From positions 4,278,001 to 4,342,000 of the forward strand of contig CAIIXF020000001.1 in NCBI GenBank assembly GCA_903813345.2: a stretch of DNA of 64,000 nucleotides, in the 5' to 3' direction. Source of the DNA: Owenia fusiformis. Its lineage: Eukaryota. Positions within the stretch are counted from its first letter, which is position 1. Every line of letters begins with the position of its first letter. This document shows, in pieces, positions 15,601-24,600 of this stretch. The position numbers and the translations under genes were made by a program. The notes under the pieces were generated by a model. That model searched no databases. It had not been told where the DNA came from and saw only the letters and a program-made list of their open reading frames with translations.

Positions 15601-18600
15601 GAAAAGCCAAAGTTTATACTTGTATCACCATCTGAAATATTCTGCCTAATATAGGGGTAAATTCCCCCAACTATATATTTGACTGTTCAAGCAAACAAGC
15701 AAGTAATTGATTGGCTTTTTTTGTATGTCTATAATATGCTTCATAAGGAAGGCATATGATGTACATGTGAGTATGACACGACTCTGGAAGAAGGAAGACT
15801 ATGTTGTTATATTTCAAATTGAACAGGCATGACAGTCACATTAATTTATGTTCACTTCCTTCAGTCGCATAAGACTTTTACGAGTCCTGAAGTTAATTGA
15901 TAACATAAACTGAATCATTAATTTTGAATGCTATCACTGGGAATACCAAAAAAGGTGACTGACAAAAGCACATTAATATTTTTCCCTCAACCATGACAAA
16001 TATGTTTATAGTACTTTATCCTATGCCAAGTAGAGTTTTAGGGAGATAAGTTGGTAAGATATATCCCGTATTTTGATTTTGAGGTTTCCATATCCAGAAC
16101 CTCCATATCTCCCGCCATATCTCCCGCTTCGGTGCATATCTTCCCGCTTCCGGTAATTTCACTTAAAATTTCTTTTTTTCAAATTTTTGGATACATTTAT
16201 CCTTTTGTTAAATTGTTTAACAACACTTTTGTATTTCAAAAAGTTATCAATGTATTTAAAATGTAAAAGTGGAAATGCAAGAAAATGACTTTGCATATGA
16301 ATGATTTGTTTATTTTTACACCTTGTACTATTGAAATGGCCATATGCCCCTGAAAACTTGGTATAGGATAAAGCAGTTATGTACGGTTGGTTTGGATATT
16401 GAGTTCATCCCTCGTGAGATATGCACATCTACCTTCGGTCCCTACGGTTCCTCAGGTAGATATGCATATCTCCCTCTGGATAAACCCCATATCCAAAACC
16501 TCCCAGTACATAACCCTTATGTATATGATTCGGTGTATGTTGAATTCTACCCCTCCCATTCATTGTATTTTTCATTGATAATTTAATTTAATTGAGCTGC
16601 ATTGTCATCACATTATCCCAATTTAAAAATTGTGAATTATTCATCATACATGACTCAATACTCTTTGATTCTAGGTGTCAAGTAACTTGCTTAACCAACA
16701 TTTATGATTTTATCTTATCCTCATTATATAAAATCCTGTTTTTGGATATGTTTCAATGAGGTCATTATTCCAGGAAATGTCAACGGAAATACAACACACC
16801 TTGGTGAATTAATTTGACAGCAGCTCTCTATTTTAAGTTCCACTTATAAATATTTTTCATATGATTAACTGAATTTTGATACATGTTATGCATATCAAGT
16901 ACTATATTTTGGAAAAGTTTCACTTTTTGTGAAATAATTGGTTTTATTATAGAAGTTATAACGCATGATGAAATGTTAAGTGACATCGAATCATTTAATT
17001 GGGGGCATAGGGAGATCTCCTGGGGGATAACCTTGTTAAGGGTCTATAAACTTTTTGTCTATATTTGAATATGGGTTTTGTTTGCGGGTATTCACCAGTG
17101 TTCTAGTAGCATTCAATCTGTGTATTCAATGAGAAAACATGTGGGATGACTATGGTAATCCTAGAAAATACAAAGAGCCAGTGTGAGATTACAACTTACC
17201 TTAAAAACCTTGCGGTTCAATGAAATACTTTTGCTATTCTGCAGATAACTGTTTAGTGAGATTTCTGTGTTTCTCTGTCTTGTGTCTATTCCTGGTTGCT
17301 TATCAACTTACCTCCAGCTCTCTCAACAAGCTAGCTTCTTGACAAAGCATTAAATAAAATGTTTTATTCAAAATATAAGAAATAAAAAGTGCATAATTTT
17401 ATATACATGGAATTGATAGAGACTATAGGAAGAAGATACTTTATATAATTAGGGAGTCAGAACTGTGTATAAATTCATCTGAAAACGGAATTTTGAGTAT
17501 CCTGACTGAAAATAATACATCTCTTCTACTTTAGCAATGTCCCATATCAAGGTGATATGACTAAAGTACAAATGCATCTTGATTGACATAAACCCAACAT
17601 TGATTTCATCTTGGATTTATTAATAACCAATAACCTTTGATTTATGAAACCTAAGATGGGCCTAAAGTGAAGAAACATGTTCTGTTTGACAGCTCTACTC
17701 GATCCTAACCCTACCACTTCTGAAAGGGCCTTTTTAGATGTCTACTCACATGCACATAGCACACTATGAATATACATGTCACCATGAACATACATAATAC
17801 AAAAATAGAGTCTTGTTTGTCTTACATTGAAATTACATGTATATATCTAGGTAGTTTGTGAAGATCATTTCAATATAGTTTCTTTTTTTCTGCCATATAA
17901 GGGCACTTTACACTTGAGAGGTAGAAATTGAGAGGTTTTCTATCGTAGCAAGCATACAAAAATTGCATAAGAAACAAACTTTCAATAGGGAGGTTAAGAA
18001 ACATGTTTTTAAGAGAACATGTATGTGAGTGAGTAATATTTCGACCTTCAGAATTACTGTCCCACAATAAATTCACTTTCGCATGGACCTATTTGCAATT
18101 ATTTTCCTTATACCTTTATACTCAATGGGCCAAGTAAATATTACAAATGGGAGAACTAATCCATAGAGAACCATAATTCTACACATCGTTTTTGATTTTT
18201 GAGTTATTTCTTTGAATTATATATGAAAAATACAAAATAATTTTTTTCCTGGAATGTGTACATTTTCTCCCAATTTTAAAAACTCAGGGCAAGGCTCATA
18301 TATAGAATCTGGAAACCCTCCTCTTGAAAGCCCATGCATACAGTACAGAACTATGAGTGCAGTTAATAACATATCATTTACAGTTTCATTATACCTCCTT
18401 ACAATACATCAATATCCGGTTACATGAGATAGTTCTGCGCATGCGCCAATCAGAGTTCTTGCTGACATGCAAGCCGAGTGGACGTCTATTTGTAGACTCC
18501 ACAATTGATAGTGTTACTGGTGGTAGTATATCACAGTGCACATATACATATTTATATGTATTTATGGAATTTATGATCGGTACGTCTGAATTTCATGTAC

Positions 18601-21600
18601 GATAAGAAAGTAGTTATTTTATCATTACACATTCTGAACACCGGCCAAGTCTGGTTGTTTCAGAAAATAGTATTCACTGTTGTAGATCTGAGATCTCAAC
18701 CTTCATTGAATATTGATAAATAACAACGCTTCAAACCTGTTCACAGGTTATAGCGATTTGTTTTACATTTATTAACTTACTGAATACGCTATTGAATAAC
18801 TGTTCCTATAGGGATCAAGTGAGCGTTGTATTTAATACACGCTAATTAACTATAAACCAGGCCTTGGATTGGTTTAAAAGTTACGTTGCACACTTGCACA
18901 CACTCCATTGTGTTTTCAGTCAAACGGTTCTTTTGTTAGCCAATTGCGATAAAGTAAAAGTGAATAATACGTGTGAGCACATGCTTACAATTTCACTAGT
19001 CTACGTGCAATTAAGTTGTACAATATAGCTGCATGTTTTCGCATTCTGAACAGCTAAATATCAGTGCATTTACTAAACAGTACTAGCAAGTTACAGCTAA
19101 AATGACTTCACAAATGGTGAGAGATAAACCATTAGGGGCCAAGACCCCATCTGAATGTGAGAAAATGGATATAGATGATTCCATCTTAGACGAAACTCCG
19201 TCTGTATCAGGTGTAAAAAAGAAGACACCTCGAAAAACAATTCCTAAGAAATCAGGAAAGAACGATGATATTAAAAACATCACGGAGGCTATAACGTCTA
19301 GTATTTCTTCAGGCATGAGTGACTTGACGGAAATGATGGCATCTTCTTTGCAAGAATTAAAAGAAACCATTCAAAGTGGATATGAAAATGACGAACAGTA
19401 TGATGATGATTCGTACAATGATAATGATCATGATGATTCTGATCAAACACCAGTGAAGAGAATGAAAACTGATATGCAAACGTGTATAGACAATGATACA
19501 GTATCCAGTGAAAATGAGGATACTTCCGACCTAATGAAACAGTTACAATCAAAGTTCAATAAATCAAATGAGGGTCAAGGACCACCATTAAACAAGGCTA
19601 TGTCAAGCCTACTAAATGATCTAATACAGAATGTTTTGAAGGGAGACGAAGAAAGCCAAAAGCTTGATGATTACAAAACCCCTTCAAATACCCCTCTTGT
19701 ATGTGCTGCTAGGGGGAACGAACAAATATGGAGCCGCATCTCTAGTGAGGTCCGCTCGAGTGACATCAAAATGCAACAAGCGCTCAAGCCAATGATATGT
19801 TCCATAGTGGCTATTTCTAGAGCCTTAGAGGTATTGGATTCACTGAAAACTGCCGTCGGAGGAAAGACGGATGAATTCCAAGATCAATTTGGCAATATGG
19901 CAAATTTGCTTTATGACAGCATCCAAATGATGTGTTTGTCGAACTACAAGTTTAACATGAGAAGGCGTGAACTGATAAAACCAGACATTGCCCATAGTTT
20001 CAAACATCTCTGCGACAAAACATCACCTGTAACAACTTTTTTATTTGGGGATGACATTACCAAGAGAGTCAAGGATATTTCAGAAATGAATAAAACCCAG
20101 ATAAACTCAAGCGTCTTTAATCAGTCTCGAGGCAGTTATCGTGGCAGTTATCGAGGCCGAGGAAACCGTGGACGTGGCACACGTGGACGTGGACGAGGCC
20201 AGAATCATTTTTTAGGCCAAGGCCAGAATCGCAACTACAGTCAGCGGCAGGGTTACGCCCAAAACAAATCCTCTCGAGGAAAAGGAAGAGGCAACACGGC
20301 CCAGAACCAGGACAACAAACAGTCCAACAAGTAGCTGCAAATGATCATGAACCTAGTGAGGTAAGAGATTTACTTAGATCTCAATTAAAACATTTCGAAG
20401 GTGGTAGATTGAAATACTTCTATTCAGAATGGGAGAAAATCACTTCAGATCAAACTATTTTGAATGCAATAGCTGGATATGATATTGAATTTATCGATGT
20501 TAACGCTATCCCACGATCTGACCATCCACGACCAATGGTTTTCTCAGATTCAGAATGTTCAGCTGTAGAAGCCGAAATTCAAAAATTTCTCGAAAGAGGC
20601 ATTTTAAAACCAGTTGAGCATTCAAAGATTGGCTATTTATCTTCAATTTTCCTCACACCTAAAAGTGATGGTACAAAAAGAACAATTCTGAATCTGAAAA
20701 ATCTCAATGAACACGTGGAATATCAACATTTCAAAATGGAAAACTTTCAGAGTGTCATAAACATGATAACCGAAAATTGCTATATGAGTACCTTGGACAT
20801 AAAAGACGCGTACTATAGCGTACCTGTGTCTGAGACATCTCAGAAATTCCTTCAGTTTGAGTGGAAAAATACCATATACCAATACACATGTTTAGCGCAG
20901 GGCTTGTCATCAGCACCGCGCATTTTTACTAAGATTATGAAGCCAGTTTTTGCAAAACTGAGAAATGAAGGTTTCATGTCTGTTTATTACATCGACGATT
21001 GTTGTTTGATTTCAGACTCATATGAGGAATGCAAACGCAACATTGCTACAACAATTGACCATCTACAGCATCTTGGTTTTATGCTACATCCTGAAAAATG
21101 CGATCTGATCCCAAAACAGGTAATCAAATTTCTTGGTTTCGAAATCAATTCTAACACCATGGAAGTGAAGTTACCAGAAACCAAAGCAGTCGCTATTCAA
21201 TCGCTATGCATTGAAACGTTGCGTCGAAAAAACAAGATCTCTATAAGAGAGCTTGCAAAACTTATTGGAACATTGGTAGCTTCGTTTCCTGGTGTCAGGT
21301 ATGGTCGGTTATATTACCGTCACATGGATAACAATAAATCGTTAGCTTTATCCCAAAACTGTGGGAATTTTGACACGAAGATCGCATTGAATCTTGATGC
21401 ACAAAATGAAATCAGGTGGTGGATTCGTCATATTAAAAATGCCACTAACCCTATTTCTGTTATAGACCCACAGCATGTATTGCGATCAGATAGTAGCATG
21501 GCAGGATGGGGTGTGTTTGATGTGACAAATAATACCAGAACTGGTGGACGATGGAATTACGTTGAGTCTAGACACCATATTAATTACCTGGAATTATTAG

Positions 21601-24600
21601 CAATATTTCTTGCACTCAAAACCTTTTGTAGGTCTGTTAGAAACAAACACGTGAGAGTCGAGACTGACAACACTACAGCTATGACGTATGTCAACAACAT
21701 GGGTGGCTCAAAATCTATTGACTGCAATATTCTAGCCAAACAAATATGGCAATGGTGTATTTTTCGTGATATTTGGCTGTCATCATCTCACATTGCAGGT
21801 ATTGAAAATGTCGAAGCTGATTCCGAGTCTCGCATTTTCCATGATGAGACTGAATGGATGCTTGATGAACAGGTTTTTGCAGATATTTGCAACATTGACA
21901 TGTTTCCCAACCCAATTCTAGATTTGTTCGCATCAAGATTGAACAATCAGCTTGGGAAGTACGCATCTTGGAGACCAGATCCAGAAGCTGAATTCATTGA
22001 TGCATTCTCAAAAACATGGAATTGTATGGTTACTTATTATGCCTTTCCGCCTTTCAGTATTCTGATGAGAGTGCTGAACAAAATTCAACACGATAGAGCC
22101 GACGTTCTCTTGATCTTACCCCTCTGGCCCACTCAACCGTGGTGGCCAAAGATGTTGAACCTTTTAACCACACATCCAGTTGTGCTACCCCAAGGACGGA
22201 AGATCCTAAGCCTACCATACAATCCAGAGGCACAACATCCGTTGAGAAAACTGACATTAATTGCCTGTCATTTGTCAGGAATTCCCTCCAGAAACAAGGA
22301 CTTTCTGTCCCAGTTACCGAAATCATCCTACAATCTTGGAGACCAAAATCACAAAAGCAATACGAGGTTTATCTCAAGAAATGGATTTCGTTCTGTTACA
22401 CGAGGGAAATTGATCCAGTTCAAGGAACTTTACAGTTAGGTTTGGAATTTTTAATGACATTATCGGTAGATAACCTAGGCTATAGTGCCATTAATACCGC
22501 ACGCAGTGCGCTCTCATCTTGTATTAACTTTCCCAAAACAGAGACATCTTTTGGGCAACACCCTCTAGTGGTGAGGTTTATGAAAGGTATTTTTAATAAG
22601 AATCCTCCTTTACCGAGATATACGAAAACTTGGGATGTCAGTGTGGTTCTGAGACATTTGCAGAGTTTTTTCCCAATAGAAAAAACAACTTTGCTTGAAT
22701 TAACGTTGAAGCTTATCATGCTAATTGCGTTGGTTTCCGCACAACGAGCACAAACGTTACATCTATTGTCACTAAACAATCTCATTATTGAGAAGGACTG
22801 CTATGTGTTTACAATATATGACAATGTAAAACAATCAAAACCTGGAAAATCAAATCCAATTATCAAACTCCATAAGTATGATGACCCAAGTCTCTGTGTT
22901 GTAGTCACGTTGAGAGAGTACATACAACGAACTGAAAAATTAAGGGCTGGTGAATCAAAATTGTTTGTTAGTACTATCAAGCCCCATAAAGCGGTGTCTA
23001 AGGATACAATAAGTCGTTGGCTTAAACTTGAACTTAGTAGAGCTGGTATTGATACAGACACTTTCAAAGGTCATAGCACTCGTAGTGCTGCAGTTTCTGC
23101 GGCTAGCAGATCTGACGTAAATGTGGACTTGATTTTGAAAACTGCCGGATGGAGCAGTGATTGTTGTTTCAGGAGGTTTTATAATAAACCTTTGGACATT
23201 GATAATGAAAAAACGTTTGGTAAAGCGGTCTTAAGCCTATAAGAATACTTAAAATGTTTGAGTTTGCATTGACAAAACAATGTCAAAATTGTATTAAGTA
23301 GTTTATTAATAACAATATGCTTTATTTGTTTATTGTACATAATCTGTCTGTTGTTTATCAGTCAGTTGTCCTTGAAGGGAATTTAATCTTACTTAATTTC
23401 CCTTTTTGACCTATGTGCCCAGTTGGCTTTAAAATCTCATGTAACCGGATATTGATGTATTGTAAGGAGGTATAATTGGAAATTAAACGAAACTTTTGTA
23501 AAAAGGTGAAGTTTGATTGTAATTATACCGACTTACAATACAGCAATAAGGTTACATGCCCTCCCAGTGAGGCCCTACCCTAATCACTACCGTTATGGAG
23601 TCAAACATCTACAAAGGGTATAATCCAAATTTATGTTTTACAATTGGTATAATTTTACAATGTAATTAATTGTTACAATTAACCTTTTACTCATGTATTA
23701 TTTGTCAAGAAACATGAGTTGTACACCTGGGCACAGTAGGTCTTAGTTTTAAAGATCTGATTGGCGCATGCGCAGAACTATCTCATGTAACCTTATTGCT
23801 GTATTGTAAGTCGGTATAATTACAATCAAACTTCACCTTTTTACAAAAGTTTCGTTTAATTTCCAATTATATTACATAGAATACTACTTTATGTAGAAAA
23901 TTGGTCAAGAGCCTGGTTATACAAAAATACAATTGAAATAGGCTGAGTGTCTTCATTTCATCTGTTCATTTGTTTATAAAACATGTTCTGTATTTGTACA
24001 TGTTTCTAAAACTACTTCAGACTGAGTAAATATGTCAGTTATTTTACTGCTATTTTATCGCTTGACGTTTGTTTATAAAAGGAGAATTAATCTGATTTGG
24101 AGTGGTATCCGTATCACTGATTAACCCACACTAGCTACTGGTAAACAAGCTGCCTCTCTTTGTGATGTAAAAAGACTTGAAAGTTTAATTGAACAAAGTG
24201 ATGTACATATTGAGGATGAGTGTATCAATCAGTGGGGATCGATTAGTAGGTCAAGTGATGTTACTAGCGTCCATACCAGCAGATAATTTATTTTATATTA
24301 TTGGAATGCTATGCTTTATATGGAATTTATCCAACAAGAGTTCATTTTTGTGTCTAAAATGAGATAATGGGATCTTGCATTGTTTAACCCCCATTTCTAA
24401 AAGGCATAGAAATGCCATATATATGGGTGTGTATGAATATAACAACATATATATGTACTTTGTTATCAATAATAATTTTATCTTTTGTTTTGAACTGAAG
24501 CGATAAATGCATCATGTTAGAAAAAATAAAATAGTCTTCACGAGATATTAATACATACAAGGAAGAATAATAGATCTTATACCATCTCTAATTTTTAGAT

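Follow-up and report, generated by a model that had tools for sequence, protein, structure and literature searches.

Spliced transcripts of a DIRS1-like retrotransposon from Owenia fusiformis suggest a subgenomic gag-recombinase messenger RNA

Introduction

Retroviruses express env and accessory genes from subgenomic spliced messenger RNAs (mRNAs), with small optional exons in HIV-1, and Gag-Pol proteins are made by -1 frameshifting at heptamers of the form X XXY YYZ, of which HIV-1 uses U UUU UUA. Among retrotransposons, BARE and Drosophila copia reportedly make a short gag RNA. In Arabidopsis EVD and related Ty1/Copia elements, conserved splicing yields a short gag subgenomic RNA, according to the accessible text of PMC5580714. 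Here we describe a DIRS1-like retrotransposon (order DIRS) carried in 64,000 nucleotides (nt) of the Owenia fusiformis genome (GenBank assembly GCA_903813345.2, contig CAIIXF020000001.1, positions 4,278,001 to 4,342,000 of the forward strand), whose transcripts are spliced from a donor just after gag and at an acceptor just behind the FPPF motif of pol. This whole stretch is referred to as the window; positions are counted from its first letter, and all features lie on its forward (+) strand.

DIRS1-like elements carry open reading frames (ORFs) for gag, for reverse transcriptase (RT), RNase H and methyltransferase, and for a tyrosine recombinase (YR), with an overlap between pol and YR, inverted terminal repeats, and an internal complementary region (Piednoel 2011, PMC3266345, and Malicki 2020, PMC7192593, in their accessible portions). 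How YR is expressed in DIRS elements is unexplained in the literature searched; its frame overlaps pol, and most families lack a YR start codon. Splicing or introns are nowhere mentioned in the accessible portion of PMC3266345, and in that of PMC7192593 the splicing or intron passages covered, 12 of 15, all concern an artificial marker intron only. No report of native splicing in DIRS elements was found in the accessible parts of the open full text, which included PMC3266345, PMC7192593, PMC4157794, and a 2026 preprint, with subscription work (Goodwin and Poulter; Poulter and Butler 2015) and supplements outside this scope. The related Ngaro elements have been assumed to use a second ribosomal frameshift (Poulter and Butler 2015, as quoted in the accessible portion of PMC13003380).

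Results

Raw stranded RNA-seq from two runs of one study carrying the same species label (X19 and X21, from 21 runs found; ~6% and ~12% of their reads, respectively, were examined) was mapped to positions 18460-23430 along with two contig sets (X1 and X5), and splice joints were listed at a threshold of three reads. The element attracted 138 reads in X19 and 67 reads in X21, nearly all in the sense orientation. Across these two stranded runs, 19 joint reads, all of them sense, define two GT..AG joints. The first joint removes intron 1 (20361..21015, 655 nt; GAG/GTAAGA ... TTGATTTCAG/ACT, with slashes marking junctions) and is covered by five reads with four distinct starts in X19 and six reads with five starts in X21. 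The second removes intron 2 (21120..22057, 938 nt; CAG/GTAATC ... CCGCCTTTCAG/TAT), with six reads from six starts in X19 and two reads from two starts in X21. Bounded by these joints is a 104-nt mini-exon, E2 (21016..21119), which comes from inside the RT domain. The donor (20360/20361) sits 27 nt after the gag stop, while the YR-proximal acceptor AG revealed by the RNA joint (22056..22057) constitutes the first two bases of the Ser codon that follows the pol motif FPPF.

Read depth over 20452-20949 was zero in both runs, so intron 1 had been removed from essentially all molecules sampled, and depth in the bin spanning the mini-exon (20950-21115) was 4.8 in X19 and 3.5 in X21. The spliced RNA therefore retains all of gag and the YR region, and of the RT and RNase H regions only the 104-nt RT mini-exon is left. 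Depth within intron 2 was 0 over 21116-21447 and ~3 over 21448-22057, the latter in sense and mostly ~2-4, down to 0.1 in one X21 bin. A pyrimidine tract followed by AG occurs at 21450-21465, and a pol-frame ATG at 21498 would start an ORF for RNase H and the C-terminal part of pol. This signal could come from a further acceptor or from an internal start; no joint there reached the listing threshold.

An initial annotation, made from the sequence of the window alone, had proposed that pol is spliced out as a single 1.9-kb intron. Its donor side holds up: the gag stop (TAG, 20332-20334), the gag-frame ATG at 20341, and the donor GAG/GTAAGA with its GT at 20361-20362 are all present, and this donor is used in 11 joint reads from the two runs. 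Its acceptor side does not, as all 11 of these reads join 21016, no joint to 22279 is listed among the spliced reads checked in X19 and X21, and depth changes little across 22278 (5.0 then 5.4 in X19; 6.2 then 4.8 in X21). The proposed acceptor AG (22277..22278), not seen in use in the RNA joints or depth, lies within pol codons for LSG; the CTGAC at 22251-22255, the AG-free stretch after it, and the following TTTGTCAG/G are present as described. Deleting 20361-22278 (1918 nt) does yield an ATG-initiated ORF of 327 amino acids (aa), but with acceptor 22278 not seen in use at this depth both this product and the proposed branch point are unsupported. What survives is that most of pol is removed and that the YR region is brought next to gag in a subgenomic RNA; the revision is that two introns (655 and 938 nt) surround a mini-exon in place of one intron, and that the real acceptor (22057/22058) lies 221 nt upstream of the proposed one.

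Contig sets X1 and X5 show one collinear contig that runs across both introns without joints, is ~2% different from the window, and has gaps of 8 nt, 3 nt, and 1 nt outside the spliced region; X5 also has loose ends of sequencing adaptor. Although listed as "RNA?", these sets are collinear and adaptor-ended, and were therefore treated as DNA-like and uninformative on expression. The RNA reads carry the variants of the X1/X5 contig, among the variants listed, indicating that full-length copies are transcribed and then spliced. In three X21 reads, the acceptor at 22058 was joined to a foreign upstream exon, whose 30-letter sequence has 0 matches in the window at up to three mismatches. Another copy was probably spliced into a foreign transcript, and the joining of a foreign exon to 22058 indicates that this acceptor is strong in its own right. 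A stretch of 33 nt towards the end of gag (20067-20099) is common to an unrelated contig or transcript, with loose ends on both sides in X1, X5, and X19.

Related elements were surveyed for the same sites. A metagenome scan recovered 80 loci, all collinear in gag-pol-YR order with YR in the -1 frame of pol, and no spliced form joining gag directly to YR was found among them. For the donor, 37 of 81 sources were usable (a gag stop with the -1 pol frame open across it) and collapsed into 20 families; of the remainder, 33 sources had no gag upstream of YR, 10 departed from the -1 arrangement, and in one pol was far away. Donor sites, defined as at least a 7/9 match to MAG/GTRAGT within -9 to +60 nt of the gag stop, were present in 15 of 20 family representatives, compared with 1.9 expected (Poisson P = 2e-10). 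If any member counts, 16 of the 20 related families carry such a GTRAGT-type site after the gag stop, in line with a donor where the initial annotation had placed it. Matches of at least 8/9 were found in nine families versus 0.075 expected; elsewhere in these elements (73,156 nt), 101 sites reach at least 7/9 and four reach at least 8/9. The donor falls in pol phase 0 at 15 of 16 sites. The peptide flanking the donor is not conserved, and the conservation is therefore at the nucleotide level. A statistic on the Ser codon after the donor (12/12 as computed, 11 Ser on recount) was discarded as circular, given that the sites had been chosen by donor score.

The acceptor was compared at the codon after FPPF in 43 families. 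An AG follows this motif in 28 of the 43, and where the next residue is Ser it is encoded by AGY in 28 of 32 families, compared with 26% of pol Ser codons (P = 7e-13, uncorrected for ancestry). Six families without that AG have their own YR ATG 14 nt further on, directly preceded by AG in five of the six. The YR frame is free of stops from the acceptor to the conserved residue S80 in 32 of 43 families, versus 0 of 43 for the third frame. Twenty-five families have the AG but no nearby ATG, and 10 of these contain no ATG before the conserved domain. Together, the AG and YR-frame patterns across families indicate that the acceptor coincides with the 5′ boundary of the YR frame. A Fisher test of AG against ATG absence (P = 0.046) was discounted as weak and uncorrected for common ancestry. 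In L055, L073, L052, L015, and L028, the YR frame is open only from ~140-250 nt past FPPF, close to the homologue of the acceptor predicted in the initial annotation, where L073 also possesses an ATG of its own; in these lineages the junction may have shifted. The database proteins P0093, P0114, and P0110 have YR fused in frame to the pol C-terminus or to an RNase H piece, and may represent other families with a different junction, gene-model introns leading out of pol to that same acceptor, or copies altered by mutation.

Since the donor is in pol phase 0 and the acceptor in YR phase 0, joining them directly continues the pol frame into YR. This direct join is in phase and free of stops in 13 of 16 donor-bearing families, and the join in the window is likewise in phase and contains one stop (TAG 22094). 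Most leaders contain no ATG, and translation would therefore have to enter from gag. In L053 and L065, the gag stop overlaps a pol-frame ATG (TAATG) just upstream of the donor, an arrangement that would allow termination-reinitiation into a leader-YR protein on spliced RNA. In a coral gene model, P0041 (429 aa, YR), a 36-aa leader precedes YR. This leader shares 89% identity with residues 190-225 of P0123 (gag, leader, and RVT_1), and the match ends exactly at the Q/VS donor motif, where P0123 continues with V-S; P0028, an unspliced reading from the same family, differs upstream of that point. Because the leader match ends at the donor motif, the join in P0041 is in phase and connects the counterparts of the donor and the acceptor. 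When the 75-aa pre-donor leader of L003 was compared with longer proteins, it matched one pol protein only and no leader-plus-YR protein.

A T TTT TTA slippery heptamer in the gag frame (20208..20214) was identified by a heptamer scan and is a candidate site for -1 frameshifting from gag to pol. Of 25 distinct -1 contexts, 23 carry a canonical heptamer where gag and pol overlap. The pol/YR overlap of the window contains no canonical slippery heptamer in the pol frame, and that of relatives contains one in 16 of 57 distinct contexts, at scattered and non-conserved places; with no conserved heptamer there, a second frameshift is unlikely.

The observed isoform has one complete ORF, gag. The gag-frame ATG at 20341, at which the initial annotation had translation reinitiate, meets a stop after nine codons in the observed RNA and is out of phase with YR via every observed joint, so the YR protein predicted from it is not made. 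Readthrough of the gag TAG, the other route put forward, runs into the mini-exon stop in the gag frame. The pol frame of the mini-exon (ATG 21081) continues into the YR frame of exon 3 and ends there at a TAG (22094..22096). From the sequence, this codon lies in the YR frame, 12 codons past the acceptor, and this copy has no other stop in that frame from the acceptor up to the conserved YR domain. In exon 3, the first ATG (22065) belongs to the pol frame. Given that TAG 22094 blocks both the direct-join and the mini-exon routes, the observed RNA of this copy could give complete Gag and could not give full-length YR. This RNA may serve as a message for Gag alone, or the mini-exon may be skipped in other tissues. 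A Gag-YR fusion, as the initial annotation had envisaged, is still plausible, by way of the gag/pol -1 frame joined to the real acceptor rather than by reinitiation or readthrough.

The element as a whole (18363-23871) is an intact-looking DIRS1-like retrotransposon with three overlapping ORFs in gag-pol-YR order, as delineated by the ORF list, Pfam, and inverted repeats, and no second copy lies within the 64-kb window. Its left inverted terminal repeat (18363..18454; inverted repeats I2 and I3) has partners at 23434-23501 and 23756-23792, within an internal complementary region (23434..23558; I1 and I2) and the right inverted terminal repeat (23756..23871; I1 and I3), respectively. The arm pairs are 100% identical for 18418-18454/23756-23792, 82% for 18363-18430/23434-23501, and 100% for 23471-23558/23784-23871. 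The element thus has both the inverted terminal repeats and the internal complementary region of DIRS elements.

The gag ORF (19102..20334, 410 aa, frame 1, including the TAG stop; ORF list and tblastn) matched no Pfam family and is 24-30% identical to the gag of relatives by tblastn. The pol ORF (20121..22439; ORF list and Pfam), which follows in the -1 frame relative to gag and contains no ATG before 20535, comprises RT, an RNase H-like region, and a putative C-terminal methyltransferase-like part. Pfam searches identified RVT_1 (E = 8.1e-25) and RT_RNaseH (E = 0.0018, a weak match below its cut-off), the pairing of RT with RNase H after gag that is found in DIRS elements. The pol C-terminus can be aligned with its counterpart in relatives across FPPF and the motifs after it; this part has no Pfam match and takes the name methyltransferase from the literature on DIRS1-like elements (PMC3266345, accessible portion). 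The YR ORF (22097..23242, stop-to-stop, in the -1 frame relative to pol) matches Phage_integrase (E = 2e-08), a tyrosine recombinase taking the place of a DDE integrase. Its first ATG lies inside the conserved N-terminal domain in the alignment, as the initial annotation had said, at codon 120 (22454) and not at about codon 106. At E <= 1e-10, 1909 YR homologues were found, and among the matches shown, those with names are either uncharacterised or Tyr-recombinase-domain proteins and come from marine invertebrates (molluscs, corals, echinoderms, and others). No close relative of the element was found, the best YR homologue being 50% identical, and a scan of viral_contigs gave no relative.

Discussion

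On balance, we favour the reading that a conserved pol intron gives rise to a subgenomic gag-YR mRNA, read ancestrally as a Gag-YR fusion. The comparisons give good support to the view that the two outer sites would be conserved functional parts of DIRS1-like elements, and from the reading frames we infer a Gag-YR fusion as the likely product. In the mechanism proposed, the host spliceosome would splice the sense transcript of the element at two outer sites that appear to be old and conserved in DIRS1-like elements, the acceptor being the putative true 5′ boundary of the YR frame. The direct join would carry the pol frame into YR, with entry from gag via the conserved -1 heptamer or, in some families, in the same frame. 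The spliced RNA would then yield Gag, plus a Gag-YR fusion at frameshift frequency, and families with their own ATG right after the acceptor could produce free YR. The unspliced RNA would encode Gag and Gag-Pol and serve as the template for reverse transcription. More tentatively, we suggest a general form of this scheme, which could well fail in one of its parts: animal DIRS1-like elements would share an ancient pol intron, with its donor a few codons past the gag stop and its acceptor behind FPPF, the recombinase would be made and packaged as Gag-YR through the same -1 frameshift or single ORF as Gag-Pol, and an optional mini-exon would switch between Gag-only and Gag-YR.

A number of observations weigh against this proposal. 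The RNA base is two runs of one study, with 138 and 67 reads on the element; the mini-exon is apparently present in essentially all spliced reads, at a depth per base close to that of gag and YR, and no direct 20360-to-22058 joint reached the three-read listing threshold in X19 or X21. Inclusion of the mini-exon breaks the pol-to-YR phase, and after a -1 shift the pol frame of exon 1 meets a stop inside it. Conservation in related elements holds for the outer sites and not for those of the mini-exon, with GT at the homologous donor place in two of 35 distinct contexts. This copy contains TAG 22094, in a stretch for which 32 of 43 families have no stop. Phylogenetic independence does not hold for the comparative counts, and one ancestral arrangement would explain the common phase, making the pol-to-YR phase match a ~1-in-3 coincidence. 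At the acceptor, the FPPF codons give a pyrimidine tract for coding reasons alone, and some families start YR at later ATGs or fuse it in frame to pol. The join in P0041 is gene-model evidence. Finally, no stimulatory fold was detected after the gag/pol heptamer (minimum-free-energy folding of 20215-20300, z = -0.01 versus shuffles, with pseudoknots outside the tool).

The explanation that best survives beside the gag-YR mRNA is a Gag-only subgenomic mRNA as in Ty1/Copia, which would raise the Gag:Pol ratio, with YR carried passively and made otherwise. It fits the observed isoform, where gag is the only complete ORF, frames crossing the first joint stop in the mini-exon, and the frame of the mini-exon ATG stops at 22094; a donor just past the gag stop is also the place expected for a gag mRNA, and Copia offers a precedent (PMC5580714, accessible text). 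However, a Gag-only message offers no reason why the acceptor should fall where the YR frame opens, why that frame should be stop-free from the acceptor in 32 of 43 families when the third frame is so in 0 of 43, or why most families should lack their own YR ATG, and it leaves unexplained a coral model that joins leader to YR in phase. We consider it unlikely.

Non-adaptive joints, arising from chance splice sites in an AT-rich element or from host-imposed inactivation, are more doubtful still. Such joints would be in keeping with the lineage-specific sites of the mini-exon, with an observed product lacking YR, with the generally strong acceptor at 22058 that was also joined to a foreign exon (three X21 reads), and with a pyrimidine tract that comes from FPPF codons. 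They do not account for a donor enriched at one place across families with only ~25-30% gag identity to the window (nine sites of at least 8/9 versus 0.075 expected) or for AGY at the acceptor in 28 of 32 families against a 26% background. Moreover, an element dependent on its full-length RNA would be expected to shed strong internal splice sites that bring it no benefit.

We also regard as improbable a second -1 ribosomal frameshift, in the pol/YR overlap of the unspliced RNA, that would make YR and leave splicing unrelated to it. The -1 position of YR relative to pol in 80 of 80 loci and the in-frame pol-YR fusions among database proteins (P0093 and P0114) speak for this possibility, and, as quoted in PMC13003380 (accessible portion), Poulter and Butler 2015 considered a frameshift probable for Ngaro. 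Yet the overlap in the window lacks a canonical heptamer, those of relatives have scattered ones in 16 of 57 contexts versus 23 of 25 for gag/pol, and a frameshift does not require the YR frame to be open from the acceptor, ~75 codons before the conserved domain. Splicing is favoured over a second frameshift because of the spliced reads, the conserved donor and acceptor, the opening of YR at the acceptor, and the lack of a conserved slippery site between pol and YR. The exact model of the initial annotation, with a single 1918-nt intron (20361-22278) and a 327-aa YR made from ATG 20341 by reinitiation or TAG readthrough, is almost certainly wrong: its sites exist, its arithmetic is right, and L055 and L073 open the YR frame only near the homologous place, but 11 of 11 donor reads go to 21016, no 22279 joint is listed, depth is similar across 22278, and the AG at 22277-22278 belongs to codons of the conserved pol motif LSG.

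If a spliced gag-YR mRNA is indeed made, DIRS elements would have a retrovirus-like division between genomic and subgenomic RNA, and fusion to Gag would be a simple way to deliver the recombinase into particles. For annotation, DIRS YR ORFs described as "without start codon" may be complete exons and not damaged genes.

Within DIRS1-like elements, the published descriptions note the overlap of pol and YR but give no mechanism for YR expression (PMC3266345 and PMC7192593, accessible portions). Like systems with -1 Gag-Pol frameshifting, the element in the window has a T TTT TTA heptamer at 20208-20214, and heptamers are present in 23 of 25 related gag/pol overlaps, on the evidence of their sequences; unlike those systems, no stimulatory fold is found here, and the same shift is proposed to serve a second, spliced mRNA as well. 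As in Ty1/Copia, splicing inside the element generates a subgenomic RNA that keeps gag and loses catalytic domains, whereas the Copia spliced RNA is dedicated to Gag and ends early, and here the acceptor sits at the start of the YR frame and the RNA runs on through YR.

The arrangement shares with retroviruses a donor near the end of gag or the leader, an acceptor before the downstream gene, and the removal of gag-pol or pol sequence, together with an unspliced RNA that would act as genome and Gag-Pol mRNA and small internal exons that can be included. It differs from them in that the downstream gene encodes the integration enzyme, a tyrosine recombinase, instead of env, in that gag is kept in the spliced RNA, and in that the likely product is a fusion read via the gag/pol frame rather than a separately initiated protein.

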